A DNA stretch of 63,993 nucleotides, counting the filler, from Basidiobolus ranarum (taxonomy: Eukaryota), in assembly GCA_040143965.1 (NCBI GenBank). It is 8 parts of 8 records of this genome, joined end to end, with 100 filler letters (N's around TTAATTAATTAA, not from the genome) between each part and the next. Parts side by side here need not be neighbours in the genome. Positions count along the whole stretch, not along the records: positions 24,147 to 32,086 come from JASJQH010007921.1; 7 more parts are not named here. One strand, 5' to 3'. A model generated the notes under the pieces. That model was not told the origin of the DNA and did no database searches. It saw nothing but the letters and a program-made list of their open reading frames with translations. Positions 7,951-56,248 of the stretch are shown piece after piece. The position numbers and the translations under genes are program-made. Every line of letters begins with the position of its first letter. The first letter of the stretch is position 1.

Positions 7951-8050
7951 NNNNNNNNNNNNNNNNNNNNNNNNNNNNNNNNNNNNNNNNNNNNTTAATT
8001 AATTAANNNNNNNNNNNNNNNNNNNNNNNNNNNNNNNNNNNNNNNNNNNN
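7951..8050. other. Artificial linker (N-run + TTAATTAATTAA + N-run); same linker at 15999-16098, 24047-24146, 32087-32186, 40121-40220, 48137-48236, 56149-56248
   Basis: Identical 100 bp construct every ~8 kb with stops in all frames; genes are cut at its edges. Confidence 0.97.
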
Positions 8051-15423: not shown

Positions 15424-16361
15424 CCACTTCAGATTTAGCACTTTCATACGGAATTTAAATTTTGTATATAGTAATAAAAAATATTTAAAACAAATTCAAA
15501 CGTACTTATGTTTTTTACCTATAAAATCTTGGTCAAGTGCCAAGTAGTGCAGAACTGACTCTTAGTATCAAGCGCTATTTACTTCTGTTTACTAGATCCC
15601 ACAAACCAAACTACATTACTTGTATCTGTAAAAACAAGATACATATATATAAGAAAAGCTAACCCATATAGGTTTGTTAATTATATGAACATGGCTGATG
15701 TAATATTTATCCACCACTATATTGTAATATCTTCCATGTATATGTATACATGTTGAAACTCTGTCAAAAAACCTTAAGATCTAATGTTTTAGGAATCTAT
15801 CCGCGAGTAGCAAGTATTTATTATATACCAAATTAGAAATGGGAATAATATAGACGAAATACAAGTGAGTGTAATGATTTAAACATGATACATATTCAGG
15901 TGTTCTTGGCTAATAAACTCTATATATAAGATTAATGAATGATATAATGTTGCTCTTTAATAGCGGTTGGAAGAGAAACCACCACGGCCTCCGCGACCNN
16001 NNNNNNNNNNNNNNNNNNNNNNNNNNNNNNNNNNNNNNNNNNTTAATTAATTAANNNNNNNNNNNNNNNNNNNNNNNNNNNNNNNNNNNNNNNNNNNNAA
16101 TTTTGGTGACTTATGCAGAAGGCAGTGCCTCTCCTTCTGTCACTTAACTAGTATTTTGAAACCCTATTACTTATCCTTCTCTAACGGTATCTCACTGCAC
16201 TCTTGCTCAACAATTTAATTTATACACGTCCCTTCAATCGTATTCTCCGTATATCCCCTTTTCACTTGTCTTTCTTTGAGAGGACATTTCGTTTTTCACT
16301 TCACCCTCAAGTATACCTTTATTTACTTTATCCGAGTTTCTTTCTTTAACATCGCGACGAT

Positions 16362-17662
16362 ATGTTGAGAATATCCGTCATTTTTTCGTCATTCTTCTTA
16401 TTGAGCCAAATCATTTTGGTCAATGGAGCGGATAAAATTCAAGTACCACCACCTTTACCTTTACCGCCTGAACAACCAAATTGTTTGAGTTTAAACCAAT
16501 CGGTTTTTTGTGGTAGTAGTTATGGAAAATACTTTATATCTCGTAATGTTTTAATCAACGCAAGTCCAGTAACGGACATTCAAACCTTCGACCGTGCTTT
16601 GGGGTACTATTTTGGGTCCCCTACCGATATGTCCGAAATTAACCGCTCTTTCCAATGTTCACCTGGCTGGGATGGCAAATATGAACCACCCTTTAGAGTT
16701 AGTTTTACCTGTCGCGCGATATTGAATAATAATTACACGGATAGTTGTAATATTGACAATCCGATCCCACCCCTTTGCCATTCAACCTGTTTAGCATACA
16801 TCAATGGTTGGTCAACTGTTATAAAGAATCAGACTGCCTGTCCAGCTTCAGAGCAACAAATAGACATCAAGCTTCAAAATTTGAAAACTTGGTGTGATTA
16901 CTATCCCTATACCGGCACCGACGGAAGTTGCATCTCTGGACAAGATGATCAAGATAATACGTGTGGTATGGTGGTTCTTGACAAGTTCTACTCATTTGAA
17001 AACAATCGATATTTATTGGATACTAATTTATATGTTTATATCATTGATTAGGATTCATTTTACCGCAACAATCCTCGTCGTTATGCACATTCTGTAGTTT
17101 TTCCAATGCGAAATGTTGTCAATCCGAAAGTGCTTTATCATGTCCCGGAAGCTCGAGTTGGAGAATTAAACCGGGTATCAGCACAACTGCGTTGGTTTGT
17201 GCCATCGTGTTTGGTTGCTTAGGTGGCATCGGCTTGATTATCGGATTAGTCCTCTACTATAAAAGACGAGATTCGGGTTATGATCTATCGGAGAAGAGAA
17301 TTCTACAAAACCCCGAAGTCTCTATGCCAGAAGCTATGGACTCTACGGTTCATATGAATATCACGATACCCTCGGTCAGTGAGTATGTGTGTGAATATCC
17401 TTATCGACCAGCTCTACCTGATGAACTTCCATTGGAGGTCGGGGATGTGATAATCATTGTCTGGACATTCGATGATGGTTGGGCAGTTGGCAGAAATCAT
17501 ACTCGAGGTGGAGAGGGTGCCTTCCCGATGGCATGTGTAACTGTTAGACAAGTTAACCATGAAGAACATAACGACGCTGCGGCTGATTCCAATGGGATCC
17601 CGCGAAGAACATCGTCTAAACGAGCATCCAACCGACCAAAATCCTTTTCTCCAACCAACTAA
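16362..17662 (+). CDS. Single-pass membrane protein: signal peptide, Cys-rich ectodomain, TM, cytoplasmic SH3; intron 16966-17051
   Basis: Splicing TGT G|gtatg...ttag|GA joins the two ORFs. TM LVCAIVFGCLGGIGLIIGLVLYY then KRR. SH3 motifs YPYRPALPDELPLEVGDVI, DDGWAVG, GAFPMACV. Confidence 0.85.
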
Positions 17663-18825: not shown

Positions 18826-19539
18826 TCATTTCCCAAGGTAATAAGGTAGTCCCATCATAGATGGGTTACGCGTGTTGGAGGGGTTTAATGCGAAATGGCC
18901 GGACGTTTGTACATATTGTTGGATAACATTACAATTGCAGTTCCTATGCGCTAGTAATTGGCCCTTTAACTGCATCACTTCTTCTTTCAGTTGACCGACT
19001 AACATGTGTAATGATTTATTACGATTGGTAACTTCCTCGGAACGTACTTCGAGCTCTTTCATCCACATCTTCTTCTTCTGACGACATTTGGAAGCTAAAT
19101 TGGCATGATATGTCTTAATGAAATGACTCAACAAATACCACCATAGAGATGTTCACTTACCGGCCATCCTATTACGTTCGAGGAATTTCTTCCTTTTCTC
19201 TTCTTCATCATCATTTTCATTGCTAGAGCATTTCCTCTTGTGCGAGTTCGGATGTTCATCATCGTCATTTTCGTCGCCACTGCCCTTATCATCATCTTGG
19301 TAGGACTGACCGAATGATGAAACTTCTTGATCGGTAGATTTCGAATACCTTTGCATGAGCGAATTGGTATTCAGTTGATAAGGATTCTTCTGGAAACTTT
19401 GTTCGAACGGGTTGGATTCCGAAACTCCATTTAAGCTGGGTGTGAATTTGTATTCATCGCATTCCATCAGGAATCGAGTGGATGTTGGTATTATGTTTTT
19501 GGAAGGATTGTCGCGTCCAGACATACTCAAATGATTCAT
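18826..19539 (-). CDS. bZIP transcription factor, ATF/CREB (Atf1/Atf21-like), 2 exons (19539-19161, 19094-18826)
   Basis: EEKRKKFLERNRMA|ASKCRQKKKMWMKELE, leucine zipper, LLAHRNCNC; N-terminal NPFEQSF motif. Confidence 0.9.
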
Positions 19540-22500: not shown

Positions 22501-24146
22501 GATACCTCCAGCTATACAGAGATTCACCCATACTAACATCACAGTAACCCAACAACTTCGAGTATTCTACATACTGTATATAATGTCCAAAGTTGCTACT
22601 GCCTGCATACTTTTGATAATATACATAAAGATCTGAAGAAAAATGGATATTCCTCTGAAATAACTCTCTTAGATTCAATAAATGGGATCCCAGATGGGGG
22701 TAGTGTGAGAGCTTGGGCTTTGTAGAAGTAATTTTATGAAATATAAATTTTATGAGCTTGAGTGAGGTTCATTCCCAGAATTGGAGTATGTGTTGTTTTG
22801 AAGGTCAGACTAAGAACATACAATGAGTTTATGCTCAGAAAGTTTGGGAGTGTAAAATAAGCCGTCTCATGGGTAATTTGGATGACTGAAATTTCTAGTC
22901 TACACTAATTGTGAAATAGCTTCACATGTAAATAAAATTTATACTCAGATTCTGAAGTGACAATTGACTAATGAGTTCTAACTGCTTGACTGTTATCTAT
23001 CAGATAGCAGGGTGGATAAAGATAGGAATAGTAAACCTCAACAGGATGATTTTATGGACTTAACATTTATCAAATTAGTGGCATAAGTTGATTACTAGGC
23101 TCTATCTAAACTATAATTGATTTAGAAGATTTTGCAGTAAGTTACTCTGGGTATGATTGTGAAGTTGTGGATTTGAGGTTATTACTGGTGCAAGTAATTA
23201 ACACTATTATTACTTGTGTTCTGCTTATTGCCTACAATATCTTGTGTTCACAGATCTATGTGGGACTATAGTCAGAGAGCTTGATTCAGCGAAAATGCCA
23301 TCCTTGAATCATAAATAAGATTGTGTCACATATGTTCTCCCAAAGCAAAATCCAAAAGCTAGCTGATGTATGGACTATAAATAAAATTAAGTATTCAATA
23401 AAACTCCCTCCAAAAAAGATGTATATTACAGGCCATAACATCAAGCTAACAATGGTTGATTTATAACCCGAATTGTTGTCATTGGGAAATTACATATCTA
23501 AATATCCGATTGGTGAGCACCGGGACATTGTTAGTAAAATGAGGGAATATGGTCTGTTTATGTCAACTAGAATCGAAATAATATCGAACTCTGTAATAAG
23601 GTGATTATCGGAGGAAGTGCTATTTTAAGATTTCCCTATCTGAACGGTTGCCAAGTTGGTCTTACTCTCGCATAGATGGGTTTGTGAATTGCTAAACATT
23701 GTTTCTCAATCCAATTTAATCCTTAGCCAAGAGGATTGGTGGCCAACCGTTTGAAGTACCTCCGATTCACTGCTAAACACCAGCACTTGAAAGTCATTTG
23801 AACCTTGAAATGGGTGTGATCATATACTGTTGCAACTCAGAAGTGAACCCGCCCCTTTATGAAATTTCAAACTGAGGAAAGGACCTTCATTGACATGTCA
23901 GTTAAATATCACAAAGGTAAGCCACCTAATTGTTCCGTCAAGATCTCAGCAGATCAAGTTCAATCACTACTGCCAGAGACAACCCAATCCATCATGAAAC
24001 ACCCATTTCATCAGTCCACCCAACTAAGTAGAACATGGAACATTCTNNNNNNNNNNNNNNNNNNNNNNNNNNNNNNNNNNNNNNNNNNNNTTAATTAATT
24101 AANNNNNNNNNNNNNNNNNNNNNNNNNNNNNNNNNNNNNNNNNNNN

Positions 24147-24711
24147 TGTATTGCCGTGCCACGAAGTCGGGGATGTCTTCAATCTGGGTGATCCATTTAT
24201 TCAAGAACTCAATCAAAATATCCCCTCGAATCCCAATTTGAATTGCTTTCCTCGCTGTATGTCTTTCACCATTAGGTAAATGGTCAGGATCCCACTGTAA
24301 TCTAACAGGGCTTTCTTTCAACCTGCTACGATACTGACATAATGTTTCGTCAGGTAGTTTTGAGGTGGATACAGAGGCTCTTAATATCTTCTCAAATCCA
24401 AGCCTAGAAACACGAAGTGCAAGTATTCGTTCTTGATTGTATTTTGTTGCCCAACCGCTGCGATACATCATCCATAAGAAATTTGGTTTCAACCAAGTCA
24501 TACGTGTTAAAGAAAATCCATTTTGAGGGCACTCAGTCAAAAAGCTTTGACACCGAACTGCCGATTCAGAAATTTGCGGAGAGTAGGCTTGGTAAAGGAA
24601 TATACTTTCGTCGTCATAATGACCCAGGATATGACGCCCAGAAGAGGGCCAAGAGAAATTCTCCTGATCTAGGTAGCGCTCTGTAGTTGTTAGAATATCG
24701 GATTTTGCCAT
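24147..24711 (-). CDS. DUF4291-family protein, intronless, 3' truncated by linker
   Basis: HYDDESIFLYQAYSPQI, FSLTRMTWLKPNFLWMMYRSGWATKYNQERILA, VRLQWDPDH, RKAIQIGIRG. Confidence 0.85.
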
Positions 24712-25083
24712 TAAATTGAATTCCAAAAATTCAATGCCTCTTAAAGTTGGTTCATTCACTCGTGTATTTGTACTAATAATCTACCATGCTAATTGCATCT
24801 CCTTGAATTGCGGAAAGTCACCCTCTCGTTCGATAAACAACTACGGACTGGTTCTGGATGTTGTGCCTCACTGATTGCATATGTGAAACCAGCTCAACAC
24901 ACACATCAACTAAATATTTCCTAGAATAGTTTCATCATACTTTTAAACTTTAAAGCTCGATTTAATTTGTTCCCACAATGATCTCATCTGGCCTGATTTC
25001 ATCAAAGAAACTTCATAGTCAAGAGAATGCTTGTATATTTAGGTTGGAATTCTGGATGGAGTTGTTGAATTGATATTAGTGAC

Positions 25084-26341
25084 ATGGCAAACCCTGCCAA
25101 CTACTTCGACGATACCTCGGAGGCTGTAACCCTGCGTGAAGAGTACTGAATTCCTATTAGTTTGATTGAGTTTTCCGTTAACCTCCAACATTAAGTTACG
25201 AACTGATTCAGAGCTCACTCGTAGTCTTGCGGCATCAAATGCATCAAGCACGTCAAGATATTCAAAAGCTATCGGAGATGCGAGAGTTGGCACTCAACGA
25301 CCCGTCGGACTACTTGTTAAAATTATCAACCAAGGCTAGTAGCATACCATGACATTGGAATCCCTACTCTCTCTAAATAATATTAAATTTGACATAAACA
25401 AAGGCAGAGCAGCCACCTACCCGTCAACAAATCCTAAAACTGCCACATGTTGATTTCAACAAATTTCAAGAACGTTACGAGCGGATTCGCTCTCATTTGG
25501 ATGCTGAAGAATCGGGTAAATGATCTTATGGTGACGCTAGTATCTAATCAAATGTTCCTAATTTGCCACCTATCCCAGAGTTGAATAAGAAGAATCGCGG
25601 AACGTCTGATGTGAGAGAGCTTTTTTAAAGTGTAAATCAAAACTATTGACTAATTATTGAGCATTCGTTAGATCGCATATAATACCTCTACAAGCAAAGA
25701 TCCTGCAATGAAGAGAATTGAATTTCATAATAATTTCGATCGAATTGTATCTGCGCCAACCTCCAAACCCGATAAAGATTCACTTGTCATAAACAGGTAA
25801 TGTTCATTCAATATAAGTCATACTACTTATTTACATCCGTGCCTTACAACAATTCAAGGCAAACCCCAGCTTATCTTGAAATTTCCAGTGAAAGTTCATA
25901 TCTGGAGGAAGAGACTCAAGAGGTAGGCTACCTCTATGCATTGTTCCAACATAGCCTCTATGGTTGATTTACTAAGTTGATACCATAGATTATTCTTGAG
26001 GAAATTCATACCAGATGTTGTAACATTGAAATTGAAGTTGGTATCGACCCACAAACTCTTAACACTCACCTCATATTAATTCAGCAATTCTTACATCTTC
26101 AGTGTAGCAGCTGTCTACTACATCCACTAGTAGGTACTTACTACGCCTGTATCGAGTGCTTTACCGAGTTATCAGTTAGTCTGTGTGAGCATTGCTACCA
26201 GTCGGGCTATAACACACCATGTAAGGTTCCAGATTCTATATTTGATCTTAGTCGAATCACTAAAACGGCGTATTATCTATAGTTCATCTTAATGCCAGTC
26301 ACACATACTGTAAGATTATGGCTGAAGTATTGCAGCTCTAA
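25084..26341 (+). CDS. ZZZ3-like ZZ zinc-finger protein, ~9 short exons, not in ORF track
   Basis: Spliced reading: MANPANYFDDTSEAVTLRE|DYELIQSSLVVLRHQMHQARQDIQKLSEMRELALNDPSDYLLKL...PTRQQILKLPHVDFNKF (ZZZ3-like helical region). C-terminal CSSCLLHPLVGTYYACIECFTELSVSLCEHCYQSG...HLNASH is a ZZ finger. Middle exon boundaries are approximate. Confidence 0.72.
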
Positions 26342-26906
26342 ATCTGGTGTTTTCAATCAATACTGGAATTGTAATCATACGATCAAGCGTAAGATTGCTC
26401 GCCATTCGATCAAGCATAGAATTAATTGAGTCCACTGTATTCATCGAACAATCAACAAGTTTTCTCTTCCAAAATTTGCTGTGGCATCAGAAGCCATTTT
26501 TTTAAATACTAAATTTGTAATAAATACAATATAGTCATATCAACAACATACTTGATTGCTTTGGGTTGGGACTCCGCACTAAACCGTAACATAAATATAT
26601 ATGTAGTGTGACTTCTAATAATATGAACCTATTGTATACTTTGTGGTTTTCTATATGGAATTGTATTGATTCATTGCTCATCCTACACTTAAATCTCTTC
26701 AGAGTCCAACTATTATCAGACAGCCGGTCTGTGGTATAACATTGGAGTGGCCACTGTAGAAAATATTCTGCGGGGCAGACTCTTCCATTGAAAATTCCTT
26801 TTTCGTCCTTGATTTCTTGATCTTAAATTAACCAATAAGAAATAGATGGAAAGAACTTTTAACCATTTCCTGTTTACTAGTTTAAGAGGCGGGAAAGGTG
26901 GAGAAG

Positions 26907-26916
26907 TATATATAAA
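26907..26916 (+). promoter_or_regulatory. TATA box of the double-globin gene
   Basis: TATATATAAA ~50 bp upstream of ATG 26966; supports 26966 rather than 26846 as the start. Confidence 0.55.
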
Positions 26917-26965
26917 TGTTGGTCTAGGTAAGAGTATTACCATTCAAAAACATTCCTCTATTAGT

Positions 26966-28066
26966 ATGTCCGCTGTTGAAAAAACTCTTTACGAAACTCT
27001 AGGTGGGGAAGAGACCATCGCTAAAGTGGTTGAAGTCTTCTATACCAAATATGTTCTCAATGATGACCGCATCAAGCATTTCTTCGTTGGCATTGACATG
27101 GAAAAGCAACGTGCTATGCAGACCAAGTTTTTGGCCTTTGCCTTCGGAGGCCCAGCCTTTAATGGTAAAAAGATGAACATTGCGCATCGTCATCTCAAGC
27201 TTACAGATGCAGACTTTGATGCTGTCATTGACGACCTTGGTAAAGCACTACGTGATTTCGAAGTGTCTGAGGAAATTATCGCCCAGATCGTTGGTGTAGC
27301 AGAAACCACCCGGGACGATGTTCTCGGGCGCTCGGAGAAGAGTATTCCAGATGCGGTTGAAATGGAACATATTGATCGTAACCTTGTTCATACCGACCCC
27401 GTCTACCGTTTCCAGTATGTCGCCAAGTTTGTGGATTTTACTGATAAAGATGTTGAGGCCATTAAATCAGTGGCTGAGCTACTTGCTCCTCTTGGTTCCG
27501 TTCTAGTTGACGCTGTATATGACAAACTTCACAAATTTGATATTACTTGGCAATCAATGGCCAAACGTCATGAAGGCTTCTCAGGGGAAGTTGTTGAAGA
27601 TGTTAACAGTCTCGCTGTAGATAGCTCTCAGATTAAGTTTCGTAAAGACATGCTGACTCGCTACATTGGTCGCCTTTTAACTAATCCTTACGACGAACGT
27701 ATGATTAAGTACCTCGATTGGGTAGCAAAGATCCATACCGATATTCCCGGAAAAAAATCCAAGATCAATGTTGAATATATTCACATTTCTGCGCTTCTTG
27801 GTTTTGTTGAATCGACTCTGATTTGGGCTATCAGCACTTTGAAGCTTGAGAGAGAACATGAACTCAGCGTAATACTAGCTTTTAACAAAGTCCTTTGGTT
27901 ACAGAATGATTTCTTTGCCAAGTACTACGCTAAGGATGGCTCTGACGTTCCCAACTCCTTTGGTCTACACGCTCAACCTCCCAAGTGTTCTAAATTTAGT
28001 CTTAATAGCGCCTTAATTGGAGGAGTTGTAGCAATTATTGGTTTGTTGGCTGCTAGACGCTTTTAG
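26966..28066 (+). CDS. Chimeric double globin: group 1 truncated hemoglobin + protoglobin/sensor-globin domain + C-terminal membrane anchor, intronless
   Basis: trHbN motifs TLYETLGG, FY (B9-B10), HFF (CD1), QRAMQ (E7/E11), FGGP, AH (F8). Second domain FVDFTDKD, VDAVYDKL, YLDWVAKIH, VEYIHI, AFNKVLWLQNDFF. Tail SALIGGVVAIIGLLAARRF. Confidence 0.9.
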   Translation: MSAVEKTLYETLGGEETIAKVVEVFYTKYVLNDDRIKHFFVGIDMEKQRAMQTKFLAFAFGGPAFNGKKMNIAHRHLKLTDADFDAVIDDLGKALRDFEVSEEIIAQIVGVAETTRDDVLGRSEKSIPDAVEMEHIDRNLVHTDPVYRFQYVAKFVDFTDKDVEAIKSVAELLAPLGSVLVDAVYDKLHKFDITWQSMAKRHEGFSGEVVEDVNSLAVDSSQIKFRKDMLTRYIGRLLTNPYDERMIKYLDWVAKIHTDIPGKKSKINVEYIHISALLGFVESTLIWAISTLKLEREHELSVILAFNKVLWLQNDFFAKYYAKDGSDVPNSFGLHAQPPKCSKFSLNSALIGGVVAIIGLLAARRF

Positions 28067-29683
28067 TGTGATTTGATTTTGTACATGTAGACTATTCTTT
28101 TACAATTAGAATTTGTGAATATGAAATAAACCCAAATATATAATCGCAATCACTGCTATGATCAGACAGTATATAGTGTGGAAAATAAATCATCAGAAAA
28201 AGATGATTTTTAGCGATTTAGTAATCTTTGAGATGCAATTTCACGTACCTGTTGGTGTGTGGTATTGATACATCAGTGTCAGGAAGCAGGGAAAACCCGG
28301 TATTGGATTCGTCGTGGATTTACCGATACAATAAATAAACATGCCTCCTAATCAGCTATTCTCTACCAAGTACAGGCTGAATAGTATAAGTCCCGAGAAG
28401 AAAGCTACAGTTATGAATGGTATGAAGCTTCTAATTCCTTCCTTTGAACAACTCACTAGTGTGATAGGTTAATTATGGAATGACTTCCATTTGTAGTGGA
28501 CAGCCGAGTCTAGGAGCGCTTCTTCGGTCGCCTGGCCTGGTCCATTTTCCGAAGTTGAAACTAACTAGAAACTATAAGTATACATATATACATGTGCGTG
28601 ATCATGTATTACCCGATACCTGAAACTTCCTTTACACCCCAATTTGCCACACATCCAACTGAGGCCTGGAATCGCTGATGATGGATGAAATAGCGATCTT
28701 AGGAAATCTTTGTTTCACCAAATATAGAATCGCCATTTCTTTCCAACTACGTGTTATCTTCGAAAGTCAGCATCGAAAAAATTAATTTTGTGGGTGAGAT
28801 TAGTTTGAGGCCTAAACTCAAATGACAGTGTTTCCAGACAACCCCTCACTGCACTTTTACATCTATGTATGATATGGTCTATACTCATTATGATTGAATA
28901 AATATATATCACGGCAAGCCTCCAAACCACCGGCATTACTATATTGATAGCTCTTCAATACCAATACCTACATTGTAGCTACATTCCCAACAAGAGTCAA
29001 ACATCATCCGCAGATATGTCAGATGAGCAGCATCTACATCTGCTGCCCTCAATAAATGAGAAAAAGTCTATTGTATCGGGAAAAAGGATTTACAATGATG
29101 TTGAAATATCCCCTTGGTGATTAGCAAATGGCTCTATTTTTGATCGGATACTCAAATGCGAAATCATACATCGATCAAATTAACTGCTTCGTGTTCGTTT
29201 TTTACCAGAAAAGTTACGTCAGATATCTCAGCAGTAGTAACGCCCGCTTCCCTTTAAAATTTGAATTGCAAACTATGTGGCTTGATGTATAAAAACATAC
29301 ATAGTCCAAATGACACAAATGTTATCATCATTAATCACCCGAAAAACCGGTGCTTCATCAATGTAGCTCTTGAGCATGATGCTATTAGCAGATTGTTATA
29401 AACGTTGGATCACTTTGTGTGTCGACATCATTTGACGCCATTATTTGCTATCTTTGAATTAATTAGTATAAAAATGAAAACCCGTAAGCCTTCTAATGCA
29501 CATTCCTAAAGTGACATCATTAACTGGCTAAAATGATTTGGTCTTATATGCGACCTCTATTTAATCACAACTAAAAGGCAAAGTTGCACCTCGTCTCAAT
29601 GTTAGAGAGCTCCTACACATCCAGTTTGCATAGAGTACATTAAGCCTAACCTTTCTACGTAGCATCACAGCATAATCTATAGT

Positions 29684-29887
29684 ATGTTTAGCGCCAATAT
29701 CACAAAGTACATCTCTCTTAAATATTATCAGTATGAGCTTGTTACCAGCCTTTATATGTTAGAGCCTTGGGAAAAGGTGATCTTCAATAGCTTCATGCTC
29801 ACAAGTCTCCTAGTGGCAATATATTTTGGCGCCTCTTATCTTTCAGTTCCATTTATTCCCGCCGTCTTCAGCACCAGCAGTTTATAG
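29684..29887 (+). CDS. Serine palmitoyltransferase small subunit (ssSPT-like)
   Basis: YYQYELVTSLYMLEPWEKVIFNS followed by a TM helix; 67 aa. Confidence 0.85.
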   Translation: MFSANITKYISLKYYQYELVTSLYMLEPWEKVIFNSFMLTSLLVAIYFGASYLSVPFIPAVFSTSSL

Positions 29888-31186
29888 AGAAAATGTAGTC
29901 CTACTATTCTTCGAGAATCACCTCCATGCATCCAGATTTGTCCATTCCTTAACCTCCGCTGTGGGATTTCAAAGGTTTTTGGAAGATTCATTCAACCCTC
30001 TGCTATTTTCTGTCGCGTGTATACTCAGTATACATATTCACCAATATAGCATTTTTGTGTATATTGACTGGATTTCTGATCGATTTCAAAATAAACTTAG
30101 TAATCATTTTGTACACATAATGGCAATGCCATCATTGAAACTCGAACAAGTAAAAGTTCGTTTGAAAACTAGTTATTCTCATAGATTCTTACTGCTCTGA
30201 GGTTCACAATTGCTGTCTCTCAGAGTTGTTCCGGGAAAAACGCAGCGAGCCTCGCTTAATTTTGGCGAGGCTTCAATTATATCTCCTTCGAAATTTAACA
30301 TGTCAGGCTCATAACAAGTCATAGGACTACCAACATTTTCTAGTTCCATTTCCCTTGAATAATTAAGACTATCATGTTATCATGACGTATCTCATGAATG
30401 GGTCAATTTAAAACATCATTGGCTAACTTACTTGTATGTGAAAATTCTCACGATAGTCCTAGCTTCTCAGGATTATATGAATGAAAAAAATCGTACCTGC
30501 GTTGATATTCTTGACTGGAATATTTATCGGAATCTCGATTTGTCCAATTGTATGCTTGAGAAAATATCACGCAGTCATTAGCATTGTATAATTACTTGGT
30601 CAGCAAGTGACTGCAACTAGCGAACTAGTGTGAGAAAATGCATTGGATTCCGATCTGTATCAGAATGAGATTGATTCGAGGATATCCAATAATACTGGAA
30701 ATTAGTCAAGGGATAGTGAAACGTGTATTTTGTGAACAGCCAATGGTGAGGGGATACTCCAGGCAGAGAGACGCCTTTGGAAATCACGTATAAAATTAAC
30801 CATCGTATCCATGATAAATTAGATGTTAAAATGGTGATATCCCATAGTAAAGTGCGTTTCTAAGCTGTCAGAGTACTTCGGTTTATTTATGTCTTCAAGT
30901 TATTATCCTAGTCAAATTACCTACATAGATTAGTTCAAGATCATGAAGGGAATTTCGAATTCTAGGTGGTACATTCCCAGGATCACATGGAGATTGAGGC
31001 AGTCACTTACGTTCCCACACTTGATAGAAGTAAGAATTCAAATGAAGTCACTTGGAATATTTTACCTATTTATTCCCACCAGCCCCACTATTGTAATTTC
31101 TTTACACGTCCTGACAAATCACTCTTTTCTTTCTCCTTCTCATTCTCTGCTTTCTACTGTAATCCTTTTGTGACTTTTCGTAACTC

Positions 31187-32086
31187 ATGTTTGGACTTAC
31201 CGCACGCCGTTTATTGACCTCAAATACCAAAAATGCTCTGAAAAGACAATCCCCTGCAGTATTTGGCTCTATACTATTTCGCCAGGTACCGAACACTCTT
31301 TGCACATTTTTGTACCGAATTGTCACTAACCATGGTGAATTTTTATTATGCCGATATTTATACAGAATTCCAGTCGCACGGCTATTAGTCAAGCACTCAG
31401 AAAGAAGGTTCCGTTCCCTGGAGCTTCTGACTCTTATTTCACTGAGGAGATGAACTTTATTGGCAAGGGTGAAGCCATTCCAACTTACCATGTCATGGAT
31501 GTCGATGGCAATATTCTCAATCCTTCCCAAGACCCTAAGGTTAGATAAATCATATACTTTCGTAATTTACAGTTTGATGCTAATCATATTATGGGGCATA
31601 TATATTTCCTTTACGTAATCTTAGGTTTCTAAAGAATTTGCCGTCAAGATTTATCAAGATATGGTCACTTTAAACGTAATGGATTTGATTCTTTATGAAG
31701 CTCAACGTCAAGGTCGGATTAGTTTCTACATGACCAGTTACGGTGAAGAAGCATATATTGGTAGTGCAGCTGCCCTCGTTAATGAAGATGTAGTATTTGG
31801 TCAGGTTTGTAATGATTTTTCAAAGATTTGAATGATTTCTAATTTATCGCACTGTTAGTAATGATTGTAAATTATTAGTATCGTGAAAGTGGTGTGTTAC
31901 TCTACCGTGGTTTCACACTCGACGAGTTCATGAACCAATGTTACAGAAATGAACTTGATTATGGCAAGGGTCGTCAAATGCCTATCCATTATGGATCTAC
32001 TGAACTTAACTTCCATACTATATCCTCCCCCTTGGCCACTCAAATCCCTCACGCCGCTGGAGCTGCCTATTCTCTTAAGATGGAGG
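31187..32086 (+). CDS. BCKDHA: Branched-chain alpha-ketoacid dehydrogenase E1 alpha, 3' truncated, at least 3 introns
   Basis: Mitochondrial presequence [84 protein letters not shown]. Confidence 0.93.
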
Positions 32087-32335
32087 NNNNNNNNNNNNNN
32101 NNNNNNNNNNNNNNNNNNNNNNNNNNNNNNTTAATTAATTAANNNNNNNNNNNNNNNNNNNNNNNNNNNNNNNNNNNNNNNNNNNNGCCAAATAAACTTA
32201 TAACACCGATTGAAATATTACAGTGACTATCATTACCAGTGTATCAAAGCATTTCCCAAATTGTTACGCAGTGGTTGCGTTCAGTCCCAACAAAATATAC
32301 AATTCATTCCGAATCATATTCCAAGGTGGTTTTAT

Positions 32336-33857
32336 ATGTTTCTCGCAGAAAAGTACGAAGCTTTCATTCTAAAGAATGCTTCCCAAGTGAGTGGAATCGA
32401 AAGCTTCCTACGTTCTTTGACTTATGTATTACCAGGTATGTTCAATAGCCTCTTCAGCTATCGTTTCCTATCCTTTCGGTTAGTTTTCTAATGTCTTGGT
32501 CATTTCTTCAAGGGAGATTTAATGACTCTGAGTTTGCCTCCGAAGCTTGTAAGTCCGTCACATAACATATATATGGTTTTCTTTAGAAAGCTAATGTTTG
32601 TTGCACTAGTGTTCTCTTTTATCAATCTATTGGGTTTATATCATGATAAAATATTGGTAAAAGCTGCCTCTAACCATTACCAAGAGACTGGAGAAAAGCC
32701 ACCAACACCAGGGAACTTCAATAGATATATACGATATCTTTATCGGTCATCAGACAATTATCGTAGAGTATCGTTAGTACTCACCATATTACAATATACT
32801 GAAGTGCTACTAGAGATGAGTGTACAAAAGAAATGGGGGAAGAACAAGAAATGGAACATCATTTTGTATATTGAAGGCGTCAAGTAACAAGTTGCTTAAA
32901 TAATCACTGTATGCTATTTATCTCTAAGTCCACCTTTATTAGGGCTGCTCTTCGTTTTTCTCTGGTCCAGATGTCAGGTAATCGCACTTTAATTTCCCCC
33001 CCTCATCCAGAAAGAGAGGTCGATCCTTCCACCATGCACCCGGATAAAAAACCCACAAAGATACCTACTTGGACTGGCACACGCACAGGCCAAAATCATC
33101 CAGTTATTAACACGATCATATCGGATAAAATGGGAAACCTTCGAGTGACCGACTATGTCCTTTCCAAGGTCTTGGATATCGAAAGTGCAAAGAAACCATT
33201 GGATTTAGTTCGTGCATTGGCGGGATGGGGTAACGTTGGTGAGATGCTCTTTATAATTCGACCATTATTCTATGGTAAGTTAAATTTCCCACATCAAGAA
33301 TATTATCCTCCCTTATAAACCAAATATTTCTAGTATTTTTGGTAAGAAAGTATGGAAATCAATCTTGGAAACCTTGGGTTCTCTCACTACTGCTAGAATA
33401 CGCTAGTCAAAATTCCACTCAACATCATTGGGATACTCATGGTGGAAAACGTGCCACTAGTAGCTTAGAGCAAGAGGAGCATAAGCGCCGTCAATGGCTC
33501 ATGCTCTTCTATCTTCTCCGCAATCCATTCTATGAGAAATTCACCAAGTAAACATGCCATTCCAATGAAATATCTTGAAAAACTAAGAACTAACCCGTCC
33601 ATACGCTTGAATTTTCAGACCACAAATCCAAGACCTCTGCAAATCTACCAGCAAGAGACCTATTATATCTCTCTTCTCTGGTACGCAAAATCAACATATT
33701 CCAATGTAGTAATGACAACTAACCTGTGGTTCGTTTGATAGGTGTTTTGCAAGATTACATGCCTCTCTGGGAGAATGTTTATTTTTACAGTAAGTACCAC
33801 CACCTTTGTCAACTAATCTACATCCATTAACCTTGATGACTAGCTTCCGGCTCATAA
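32336..33857 (+). CDS. PEX16: Peroxin 16, multi-exon
   Basis: KYEAFILKNASQVSGIESFLRSLTYVLPGRFNDSEFASE, LLGLYHDKIL, EVLLEM, PPHPEREVDP, GEMLFIIRPLFY, SWKPWVLSL, FYLLRNPFYEKFTK, DYMPLWENVYFYTSGS. Start codon uncertain. Confidence 0.9.
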
Positions 33858-34260: not shown

Positions 34261-35583
34261 TTACGAGATGGCAGCATTGGAAAATACTTCAGCAAGATCA
34301 TTCCCATCTCCAATATTGTCACTAACAGGAGAAATTGGTGCGGAGTTGGGTGGTGGATTGCCACTAGGGCCTGAGCTAGACTTCTTGTCTAAAATCTCAA
34401 CATAATTTGATGGGAAGATTCCAACTTGGCCGCTGCGGAGTCTACCTCTCCACCAGTCGCTAGGCTGACCGTTTAAATCGGTTTTGCTGAGGACTGCAAT
34501 AACATCACCGCGCTTAAGGCTGAGTTCAACATTATTATCACCATTGAAGTCGTACATTGCTCTAGCAAATTCGACATCCTGGGGAAGAGGGCCTGGCTGG
34601 CCGGGAACGTTGGTGGCGGGGATCATACCTTTCGCTTGCTGGCGCTTGGCTAAAGTCATGATTAGACGATGCATAAGGAAAGGAACTCCTAAAACAACCA
34701 GTAAAAATATGATGACTGGGCGTTTGGACGATTTCTTCTGCTCAAAGCCACTAAAATCGGACACGTTCAGTTCTTCTGGGTTGACTGGAGGATTTTTACC
34801 AATCATGCGATAAAAGAGATTACGAACTGTACGAATCAAAGCAAAGACACTCAGAACTTGTCCAAGATGTGTTCTTAGTCGACCGAATTGATCAACAACT
34901 CCAACCATAGCCATAAAGGAGGAATGAGTAGCCATGAAAGTAGATTCCAGCATGTGGGCACACCCACCAAAAGCGTTTACGATTCCGTCGATAGCTTGGA
35001 AAGTGGGCTGAACTGTAGACTCAACGGTGTTTAGAAGACCAGGTCCGCCTTCAGGACCATTTGGACCCATACCCATGCCGCCCATGCCGCCGTAACCTCC
35101 TCCATAGCGCGAACCATACCCTCCATATCCGCTGCTCATTCCTCCATAACTGCCATATCCACCACCATAGCCACCGTATCCACTACCATATCCACTACTT
35201 CCATATCCGCTACTGCCGTATAAACCACCTCCATATCCACTACTGCCGTAACGCGAACCATAGCTACTACCGTATCCTCCTGAGCTATATCCCCCAGCAC
35301 CATATCCGCCATAGCCTGAACGATAACCTCCCATAGCACCACTACCGTAAGAACCTAAACATATAATATATTAGTTCGAATGATGCACTTGATGACCAAC
35401 TAAAGGTAAGGATTAGTAAGAAAGTATACCTGCAGTGGCACCATATCCGGTCATAGAAGTCCTCTCAGGAACTAAAGGAGGGTTAGCTCCCGTAGATGAA
35501 TTAGTGCTAGCATTAGTGCTAGACATGGTTGAGACTGTCGAAGATTGTGGGTTTTTTTCCCAAGGTTTTGGTGGAGAAGCCAT
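34261..35583 (-). CDS. PEX13: Peroxin 13, 2 exons (35583-35430, 35354-34261)
   Basis: MASPPKPWE, YG-rich region, TFQAIDGIVNAFGGCAHMLESTFMATHSSFMAMVGV, TM, SH3 (FARAMYDF...WWRGR...GIFPSNYV). Confidence 0.96.
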
Positions 35584-39900: not shown

Positions 39901-40582
39901 GTTGTTACATTTGCGGCACTCAGATTATGCTTCAGACTCTAAATACCAAATTAAAATTGCTCGATGGTCGGGACAACTTGAGAGGATTTACCGTATTGCA
40001 AGGAATGACTCTATAAGTAAGGTTAAATTTTAAGTGACTTAAACTTTATAGCGGGAACGAAGATAATCCACCAAAACCTGTTTTCACTGTGGGATCCGAT
40101 TACAAATGGCCAAATATGGCNNNNNNNNNNNNNNNNNNNNNNNNNNNNNNNNNNNNNNNNNNNNTTAATTAATTAANNNNNNNNNNNNNNNNNNNNNNNN
40201 NNNNNNNNNNNNNNNNNNNNGTGAGTAGAATCAATTTATGTTTCATGGGCGAGGCTAAATATGGTATATTCATTTTGAACAATAACTCTGGCCCAGTGCG
40301 AACAGGTTTTGTCCAGATGTACAGGAATATGATTTTGGATGTTTTAGTTACACGACAGAATCAACATGGGCTGAACGAAAAATGGAGCTACAAACCAGCT
40401 CCAGCGATAAATATAGTAAAACAACTTTATACAATGCTTGAAGCTGTTTCTTTTAAAAGGCTATACACCCGCTCTCCAAGCGTTGTCTTTTGCGCTTGGC
40501 CTATTTACATCTTAATCCCTCCTATTAATCCTTTTCCGAATATACATTTCCGAGATCTCAGCGTTTCTTTAGCTAATTTCAG

Positions 40583-48136: not shown

Positions 48137-49398
48137 NNNNNNNNNNNNNNNNNNNNNNNNNNNNNNNNNNNNNNNNNNNNTTAATTAATTAANNNNNNNN
48201 NNNNNNNNNNNNNNNNNNNNNNNNNNNNNNNNNNNNCAAGTTACTTGTTAGTATACCTATGGCGAGGAAAACTCGAATTCCCAAATACAGCAGAGCTATT
48301 TGTGGCTGAGGAACAGGATATCTCTTCTACAACTTGATATAAAATATCCTGCTATGATGCGTCTCCAATTTCTCCTAGTACTGATACTTTCCTGAACTGC
48401 CACTTTTACTTGCAATTCCGGTATATTTTGTACTTGCCTTATAATATGCCTCTTGTACTGTTGTGTTTCCGGCATTAGTATATGAGTATTTTATTTTTGA
48501 AATATCAAAATTCTTGGGTCGCCACTCAAACATTATGATGGGATTTTTTAATGACACTCTTTTTACGGCATTTCACAGCTTAGAAACTCAGTACACGTGT
48601 ACAGGTTTTCTTCATGTTTGGAAGTTGGTTGGGTTCATATACTTCTCACTTACCCGCAGCCCAAGATATAAAATTCAATAAGTTTATTCGTATGCTTTCC
48701 ATGGCTAGTTGTTCTCGAGATTTTTGCAAGAGGAAATAACAAAGTGAGAAAATCACGGCCTTCGAGTATGTGTAACTAGAGTAATAATGCTTTACATTCA
48801 AGTGGCCATTTCTGCCTCGTAGTGCCAACATACTGGTAGGAGCGTAAAAATAGTTCAACTAGAGAGTCTGTAAAATTAACAAGAGTATTTGGATTTGAAT
48901 AGGTTATTGAGATTAAGCAATTATATTATGCATCGTGCGTAGTGGCATGTACCGTAATAGCCATCGATGCATCTATAGTCAGAAGCACCATTCTTTTAGT
49001 GGCACAATCATTACCGACGCCACTCTGGTTGTACAATATATAATAATAAGCAAGCACCATGGGTGCCAGCCTATCAGAAAGCCCGAATGTAATCAACAAT
49101 TGGACAAGTTTGGTTATGAGAGGACAGAACTAAGTCTGAGCTAAAAAAACCGAGAAGTACCAGGTTCTTGGCAATACTGAGGGCTAAGACGAGCTTCCAT
49201 GTATTTACTACTTCCTATCAGTGTCAATCATCGAGTTAGAGGCAGAAAGGGGGTTATGCGAAGGATCGTGTCCCTTTCAAATATCCCCTTCGAACAATTA
49301 AGCATGATGTATCACTTTACACTCAATTATGTTTTATTTAGCAACCTTATACTTGCGTCACCAACAAAATCTGGTAGCTCAGACCCAGCAAACTTGTT

Positions 49399-56148: not shown

Positions 56149-56248
56149 NNNNNNNNNNNNNNNNNNNNNNNNNNNNNNNNNNNNNNNNNNNNTTAATTAA
56201 TTAANNNNNNNNNNNNNNNNNNNNNNNNNNNNNNNNNNNNNNNNNNNN

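Follow-up and report, generated by a model that had tools for sequence, protein, structure and literature searches.

What kind of protein is made where a single uninterrupted reading frame carries two different types of globin and ends in a hydrophobic helix? The question is raised by an open reading frame (ORF) at positions 26966..28066 (+) of a 63,993-nucleotide stretch of DNA, here called the window, from the fungus Basidiobolus ranarum (GenBank assembly GCA_040143965.1). A preliminary description of this DNA had seen one intronless ORF in which a complete group-1 (2/2) truncated hemoglobin, here the T domain, is followed by a complete sensor-type (3/3) globin, the S domain, and the reading frame, the Pfam matches and the folds agree on this. 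The observation is confirmed, and the first interpretation placed on it is partly supported. As far as the searched proteins tell, the T+S chain is a new domain architecture, built from two known kinds of globin and restricted to the genus Basidiobolus. As to how it arose and what it does, we lean slightly towards a Basidiobolus-specific fusion that placed an old fungal T globin in front of an old tail-anchored S globin, the two then serving as independent sites for NO and O2 at a membrane.

Two globin domains and a hydrophobic tail in one frame

The frame runs unbroken through 366 codons and a stop in genomic DNA. In a protein library search its nearest matches were one protein of B. meristosporus (P0002, 87% identity) and three of B. 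ranarum (P0003–P0005; 85, 81 and 76%), all hypothetical proteins, so that the four span 76–87% identity, and they cover 98–100% of the query. Because the ORF is colinear with these full-length homologues of 365–371 residues, the coding sequence (26966..28066, +) contains no intron. A second in-frame ATG lies upstream at 26846, and its use would add 40 codons. The equivalent of 26966 is the first residue in all four Basidiobolus homologues, and the GC content at third codon positions is 0.23 in the extension from 26846, while the T and S parts have 0.46 and 0.39. Between the two ATGs lies a pattern match to a TATA-like element (26907..26915, +), a candidate promoter element, and a hexamer resembling a poly(A) signal, AATAAA (28125..28130, +), which may function as one, follows 59 bases past the stop. 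On these grounds we argue for 26966 as a better start than 26846.

The T domain occupies residues 1–122 (26966..27331, +) and was assigned by Pfam, by its match to PDB entry 3aq5 and by Foldseek. Pfam Bac_globin (PF01152) matched residues 7–119 with 61.6 bits against a cut-off of 21 (E = 1e-16), and the truncated hemoglobin (trHb) of Tetrahymena pyriformis, 3aq5, was matched at E = 5.7e-24 with 41–42% identity. The best 24 PDB matches (E = 5.7e-24 to 3.7e-12) were group-1 trHbs, HbN, cyanoglobins and ciliate or Chlamydomonas hemoglobins, while chains named HbO (E = 0.22–0.25) and YjbI (E = 0.17), which we take to be group 2 truncated hemoglobins, scored far more weakly; its PDB matches set the domain closer to group 1 than to either group 2 or group 3. 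The modelled fold gave a Foldseek target TM-score of 0.82 to the Tetrahymena protein (root-mean-square deviation 2.5 over 112 columns to 3aq5/3aq7) and 0.73–0.76 to M. tuberculosis HbN (1idr), a likeness to the group-1 trHbN proteins.

The heme-pocket residues read earlier from this half, TyrB10, PheCD1, GlnE7/E11 and HisF8, were all found in the alignments, as Tyr26 (B10), Phe40 (CD1), Gln48 (E7), Gln52 (E11) and His74 (F8; codon 27185–27187). Tyr26, Gln48 and Gln52 align with Y25, Q46 and Q50 of Tetrahymena trHb, distal positions at which the entries 3aq7 (Y25F), 3aq8 (Q46E) and 3aq9 (Q50E) carry substitutions; the helix labels that we give to the Tetrahymena positions are assumed ones, the PDB titles giving the labels B10 and E11 only to HbN of M. 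tuberculosis. With those labels the Tetrahymena protein has the same TyrB10-GlnE7-GlnE11-HisF8 set as the window T domain. Across a 25-row T alignment His74 is invariant, and Phe40, Tyr26, Gln48 and Gly13-Gly14 are at least 90% conserved; G13-G14 and G61-G62 are the Gly-Gly hinges of the domain. Tetrahymena trHb and HbN are free soluble proteins of ~120–136 residues, whereas the window T domain opens a longer, putatively anchored chain and has no pre-A extension.

Residues 133–325 (27362..27940, +) form the S domain, a sensor-type single-domain (3/3) globin of the Protoglobin family according to Pfam, a profile search and AlphaFold2. Pfam Protoglobin (PF11563) matched residues 147–325 with 132.8 bits against a cut-off of 25 (E = 1.4e-38), and the E-values exclude chance for both domain assignments. 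A search of the PDB with the single S sequence gave no solved relative at E ≤ 1. With a profile of 29 homologues the best match was the Geobacter GCS globin (2w31, E = 2.6e-4), and M. acetivorans protoglobin (3zjj, E = 4.1e-4; 2veb, E = 2.2e-3) and HemAT (1or4, E = 5.9e-3) were also found. The S half was modelled with high confidence (pLDDT 85–97), and the target TM-scores of the model were 0.86–0.88 to AfGcHK (5ohf, 5ohe), 0.84 to HemAT and 0.64–0.78 to protoglobins.

The S pocket consists of Tyr185 (B10), Arg226 (E7 position), Leu230 (E11) and His257 (F8; codon 27734–27736). His257 is the proximal His that had been proposed in the motif KIH, and the profile alignments bear this out: it is at least 90% conserved among 29 aligned S domains, and the residue that matches it is the first His of 'RHH' in M. 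acetivorans protoglobin (position 120, counted from the alignment) and likewise a His in the Geobacter GCS globin. The counterpart of Tyr185 in protoglobin is Tyr61(B10), a label taken from the title of 3zji, and that of Leu230 is position 93 (E11), where entry 3zjj carries the mutation F93L. Each of the 22 rows spanning the S domain retains His257, Tyr185 and Leu230. We also observed that Arg226 (27641–27643) is invariant, as Arg in 29 of 29 aligned S globins, bacterial and eukaryotic; an invariant Arg at the E7 position of protoglobin and the Geobacter GCS globin is unusual for a distal-site position. Past the globin there is a 20-residue spacer and a membrane helix, and no further Pfam family passed. 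Since no transmitter domain follows, the S half is a sensor single-domain globin and no globin-coupled sensor. Its first residue, Met133, lies where stand-alone S homologues have their initiator Met.

The segments that join these parts differ in conservation. The linker (residues 123–132; 27332..27361, +) is variable, with 31% mean pairwise identity among the five fusions described below, and it was modelled as disordered, pLDDT falling below 50 at residues 124–127. The spacer that separates the globin core from the membrane helix (residues 326–345; 27941..28000, +) is 72% identical among the fusions; no helix was modelled at 322–345, and the pLDDT blocks covering 331–350 are 68 and 65. The chain ends (28001..28063, +) in a Gly/Ala-rich helix, residues 346–362, with a Kyte-Doolittle value of 2.18 over these 17 residues, followed by A-R-R-F (363–366) and the stop. 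AlphaFold2 extended the helix over 346–365. A short hydrophobic helix plus RRF had been described as a tail anchor, and the end does look like one: the helix is a lone hydrophobic one at the extreme C-terminus, with four residues after it. At the other end the first residues align with soluble trHbs and suggest no N-terminal signal, a point for which no dedicated signal-peptide or transmembrane predictor was run. With its Gly/Ala-rich helix and short basic end, the tail is presumably closest to the anchors of the mitochondrial outer membrane or the endoplasmic reticulum.

Rarity and reality of the fusion

Both halves were used as separate queries on each of 399 proteins fetched from two very large libraries. 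The T+S layout was found in 5 of the 283 first proteins, all from Basidiobolus and including the window's own, and in none of 116 further proteins scanned with per-domain profiles, which bears out the expectation that the architecture is not a common one. Among 1.84 billion cluster representatives, the best 150 of 3176 matches (at or above ~98 bits) likewise contained no other T+S protein. The layout is shared with P0002 of B. meristosporus and P0003–P0005 of B. ranarum, and the five fusions span at least three species or lineages. Their mean pairwise identity is 80% in the T part and 88% in the S part. The pocket residues, Y-F-Q-Q-H in T and Y-R-L-H in S, are intact in all five, save for Gln52, which is Leu in P0005. 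At the position of Met133 all three B. ranarum copies have Ile, while the window and P0002 have Met.

The continuous genomic frame, the recurring layout and the replacement of Met133 by Ile in three copies indicate, at the level of the gene models compared, that this is a true fusion and not a merged gene model. Its being a neutral and recent accident in an apparently duplicate-rich genome, with one half decaying or the halves expressed apart and no joint function, is a reading that we consider very unlikely. Several features would fit it. A 'partial' T globin of B. meristosporus (P0121, 122 residues) stops precisely where the linker begins, and this protein and a 234-residue S globin (P0006) sit on contigs of equal size (177,289); P0005 is without GlnE11, and its T half has diverged, with a minimum identity of 66%; and Met133, at which an S globin might start, is retained in the window. 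The fusion has nevertheless been maintained in at least three species or lineages and in five copies with heme residues in both halves, and three copies have lost Met133 to Ile. Both B. meristosporus 234-residue proteins nest within the fusion clade of the S tree, and this, together with P0121 ending at the linker, fits a split gene model better; P0121 and the 234-residue proteins are most likely, to judge from these placements, split gene models or secondary losses.

Two sets of proteins that might have been taken for further T+S chains were rejected. A set of ~80 bacterial proteins of ~270 residues (P0284–P0365) is labelled PF01152+PF11563, often with PF10396 (TrmE_N), and these are really T+T tandems. 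T+S as a common bacterial architecture was thus rejected: among the 116 further proteins, 83 were T+T, 33 single T and none had an S domain, as shown by Pfam on nine of the labelled proteins and by our own domain profiles on all 116. The PF11563 label there is a partial cross-match within a T domain, covering profile positions from 30–31 to at most 117 of 158; significant PF11563 stretches were absent from eight of the nine proteins, and P0363 had one short stretch (30–79). Co-labelling with PF01152 and PF11563 therefore mostly marks bacterial T+T tandems and is a pitfall for architecture searches. Long proteins with multi-stretch matches (P0136–P0149 and others) were rejected as well, Pfam and per-domain phmmer showing them to be same-type arrays, with 12 T units in P0137 and four S units in P0136 (2207 residues). 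Other partners of the S globin were seen in passing: MoCF_biosynth and MoeA_N before an S globin with a tail in P0153 (789 residues), asparaginase_2 before an S globin with a tail in the chytrid protein P0068 (613 residues; possibly a merged gene model), and a PP2A B56 fragment beside the S globin in P0234.

Descent of the two halves and genomic surroundings

The tail anchor had been described as part of the chimera. This view did not survive a survey of the first 88 matches to the ORF, which are eukaryotic wherever a source is named. A tail-anchor-like end was found in 49 of the 88, the named ones coming from Basidiobolus, Mucorales, chytrids, Blastocladiomycota and one marine protist transcript; it was found in one of the 32 next matches, a rotifer protein, and in none of 80 bacterial S-globin loci. 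Nine of the 88 have neither this end nor a second, aromatic type of end, ...FFxRLWxFFF, which 30 of the 88 carry, the named ones being Mortierellomycota. In these 30 S globins (P0008–P0034 and others) the chain finishes in a conserved ...GFFxRLWxFFF and not in a hydrophobic helix, and the aromatic end may be a different anchor, for a membrane or a lipid droplet. Because the hydrophobic tail is widespread in fungal S globins and absent from all 80 bacterial loci, it is, on this distribution, an old eukaryotic addition to the S-globin clade that would predate the fusion.

For the S half a quick tree was made with branch support from the SH-like approximate likelihood-ratio test (SH-aLRT) only, using 37 of 38 rows (P0085 was removed by the length filter). 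It separated the eukaryotic clade from the bacterial outgroup with a support of 99, gave the Basidiobolus proteins 100, and united Mucoromycota, Mortierellomycota and Basidiobolus with 95. Among the listed matches with a named source, identity to the S half is 56–65% in Mortierellomycota (P0008–P0034), 47–59% in Mucoromycota and 44–53% in chytrids. The position of the S domain, nested among fungal sequences, fits vertical inheritance within fungi. The tree agrees with a 2012 census of globins (Hoogewijs et al., 2012, PMC3287990), part of whose text places fungal S globins apart from bacterial ones save for a few Planctomycetes. We collected bacterial S-globin loci as the best 80 of 511 confirmed stretches (L001–L080; 40–49% identity), with flanks of up to 6 kb on each side, many of them shorter at contig ends. 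They are overwhelmingly from Planctomycetota (Pirellulaceae, Bremerella, Gimesia, Gemmata), matching the two Planctomycetes that the same text reports as intercalated among fungal S globins. An origin of the fusion from a bacterial operon was rejected for these best 80 loci, with no T globin found in the flanks of any of them (seven queries, E ≤ 1e-3).

The T half was placed in a more careful tree of 61 rows, in which the bootstrap was not quite settled. Six Basidiobolus rows form a group (100/99) within a clade of 12 rows (95/94), whose remaining six members are a fragment from the chytrid Entophlyctis (P0135) and five proteins, among them P0134, P0235 and P0263, which are stand-alone group-1 T globins with C-terminal hydrophobic tails of their own, and P0247, a stand-alone T globin with an N-terminal hydrophobic stretch. 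Six named bacterial T proteins, from Gemmatales, Phycisphaera, Kaarinaea, Nitrosomonadales, Gallionella and Neptuniibacter, fall outside it. The suggestion that separate trees might reveal a bacterial origin thus found no support: a chytrid T globin shares a supported clade with the T domain, the S domain branches among fungal proteins, and neither half has the look of a gene lately taken over from bacteria. It had also been said that both globins are normal stand-alone proteins in fungi. This held for S but not for T, since the census, in the text cited above, records T globins in only two fungal genomes, one of them as a large chimera. On these placements the most economical account would be a merger, within the Basidiobolus lineage, of two old fungal globins that each had a membrane anchor. 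The T globin would have lost its own anchor on fusing to a neighbour that already carried one, because a tail anchor must remain C-terminal.

The surroundings of the gene are confined to one piece of the window, which consists of eight pieces of ~8 kb joined by artificial spacers of the form N(44)-TTAATTAATTAA-N(44) (7951-8050, 15999-16098, 24047-24146, 32087-32186, 40121-40220, 48137-48236 and 56149-56248). Genes on different pieces are therefore not neighbours. The piece with the globin gene is 24147-32086 (7,940 bases), and the sole recognisable neighbour on it is a truncated DUF4291 ORF (24147-24780, −), cut by the end of the piece. The preceding piece has a bZIP ORF and an SH3 ORF (18829-19152, −; 17048-17659, +). 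On the following piece there is a Pex16 gene (32204-33548, +; four exon-like ORFs) less than 3 kb from a Pex13 gene (34264-35370, −; Peroxin-13_N plus SH3), both being genes of peroxisome biogenesis; as neighbours of the globin gene they were ruled out, lying on a separate piece. A tblastn search of the window found no second globin copy.

Possible function at a membrane

Open-access PMC papers and bioRxiv, searched for the fusion as well as for Basidiobolus globins, tail-anchored globins and fungal sensor globins, yielded no description of a T+S fusion, membrane-anchored or otherwise, in line with the preliminary description, which knew of no such membrane-anchored fusion. Globins fall into the families F, S and T, and known multi-globin chains repeat one type, so a natural chain of a 2/2 and a 3/3 globin would be a new architecture and a ready-made system in which to ask whether two different heme pockets cooperate. 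The S half belongs to the fungal Sgb/SSDgb clade of the 2012 census (PMC3287990), whose members, in the passages on fungi, are single-domain or have unidentified C-terminal extensions, and like them it has no transmitter domain. The main text of that paper contains neither the word 'transmembrane' nor a T fusion, whereas the window protein has a T domain fused in front. Multi-unit truncated hemoglobins (PMC7475203) likewise put several globin units in one chain; they repeat one type, as opposed to the joining of 2/2 and 3/3 families seen here, and the part of this 2020 review that concerns them covers multi-unit T globins only.

A closer parallel for the S half is GsGCS (2w31), an S-family globin that is covalently tied to the membrane, for which the authors, in a passage of PMC8076648, suggest redox sensing or electron or proton transfer at the membrane over classical signalling. 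GsGCS is bacterial and has a four-helix PsiE membrane domain, whereas the window protein is eukaryotic and has one C-terminal helix and a second globin. In a statement by Hammerschmid et al. (2021), transmembrane-bound globin domains in the literature are limited to GsGCS and CeGLB33. Flavohemoglobin and the raphidophyte trHb-nitrate reductase, in the sections of PMC3820574 that deal with fusions, also join a globin to a partner that serves its chemistry, an arrangement that is the standard model for NO dioxygenase fusions. In those proteins the partner is an electron-supplying flavin reductase; in the window protein it is another globin. Because no reductase domain is present, any reductant must be external to the protein.

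For the fusion that we favour, we picture the following. Both halves probably bind heme, to judge from the conserved pockets, and this would be heme b. The tail would insert post-translationally into an organelle membrane, leaving both globins facing the cytosol, and the two hemes would act as independent ligand-binding or catalytic sites and not as a wired relay. The T domain would perform NO dioxygenation or O2 binding, since the Tyr-Gln-Gln network of Tetrahymena trHb has been tied to such a function; a 2011 paper by Igarashi reportedly names that distal network in its title in connection with the detoxification of NO and the stable binding of O2. The S domain would provide a second gas or redox site as well as the membrane address. 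Tethering may bring the protein near membrane-bound reductants that could return ferric hemes to the reduced state, for example cytochrome b5 with its reductase; passages of PMC3820574 state that NO dioxygenation requires an electron donor and that cytochrome b5 can be one for cytoglobin. Handling of NO and O2 at a membrane would be the most likely function, and that the two heme sites act on these gases independently, possibly beside membrane-bound reductants, is held with moderate-to-low confidence.

Several points weigh against this proposal. In the T half AlphaFold2 could draw on just 6 of the 23 alignment rows, and its model of this N-terminal domain therefore has low confidence (pLDDT 32–80 in blocks of 10 residues); a scan of the whole protein against NCBIfam matched no family. 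The 'fungal' character of the T half depends on one 84-residue chytrid sequence, one of its six sisters in the tree, together with shared indels. With Met133 kept in the window and P0002, separate translation of an S-only protein is possible there. The target membrane is our guess from rules of anchor composition that we assume to hold here. No demonstrated function of an S globin in any fungus was found in open-access PMC papers or bioRxiv, and part of the text of PMC3820574 cautions that NO dioxygenase function cannot be declared a priori.

The independence of the two sites has to be set against a coupled arrangement, a 'globin-coupled globin', in which the ligand or redox state of the S domain would control the T domain allosterically or pass electrons to it, T being a transmitter-like output. 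The nearest folds of the S domain are indeed sensor globins (AfGcHK and HemAT, with the TM-scores given above), the two hemes are confined to one chain by a 10-residue linker, and the fusing of functionally coupled partners is common, as flavohemoglobin and trHb-nitrate reductase illustrate (fusion sections of PMC3820574). The domain order, however, is opposite to that of globin-coupled sensors, whose sensor is N-terminal according to a passage of PMC7475203. The linker is poorly conserved and modelled as disordered, and the predicted TM-score (pTM) of the whole chain is 0.58 despite the very confident S-domain model. When the S domain (1–200 of the C-terminal part) was docked with the T domain (1–124) and two hemes, our own alignments being unused, the outcome (score 0.00, mark 0.34) spoke neither for nor against coupling. 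The S globin stands alone in most early-diverging fungi, and P0153 and P0068 have other N-terminal additions; being found alone or with unrelated additions, it needs no T partner. T and S genes were paired in none of the 80 bacterial loci. We regard the coupled arrangement as unlikely. The heme-to-heme relay that had been suggested is left with nothing in its support, given a short, variable and disordered linker, the pTM of 0.58 and an S globin that occurs elsewhere alone or with unrelated partners.

A second alternative dispenses with catalysis and sees in the protein a store at the organelle surface, where two O2 affinities would buffer mitochondria or peroxisomes and deliver O2 during a low-oxygen gut phase. 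Basidiobolus inhabits the guts of amphibians and reptiles, and TyrB10 and HisF8, typical of O2-binding globins, are present in both pockets. The tail would put the protein on a membrane, and the gene copies have multiplied, with three in B. ranarum and at least one to two in B. meristosporus. TyrB10/Gln pockets, on the other hand, usually release O2 very slowly, which suits chemistry better than delivery, and the same tail-anchored S globin is found in Mucorales and other soil fungi that are fully aerobic. Because such fungi carry it, a gut-specific role fails to explain the S-globin family, and we think this account improbable, as we do the coupled one, while independent NO/O2 sites at a membrane remain the reading that we favour.

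A bolder proposal, to which we assign only a slim chance, combines elements of these: a sensor globin on the surface of an organelle, likeliest the mitochondrial outer membrane, would read O2 or redox state and gate or re-reduce an NO-destroying T globin. If this were true, the protein would be the first globin-coupled globin and would guard respiration as the fungus switches between aerobic soil and a low-oxygen gut rich in nitrite and NO, and the tail-anchored S globins that are widespread among early-diverging fungi would be an unrecognised system for handling gases at organelle surfaces. In Mucorales, chytrids and Blastocladiomycota most stand-alone S globins are tail-anchored, and those of Mortierellomycota have the aromatic tail; we found no mention of tailed S globins or anchored T globins in open-access PMC papers or bioRxiv. 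Taken together, these observations point to globins at membrane surfaces as an old and unstudied feature of early-diverging fungi, which may be a more useful lead than the fusion itself.

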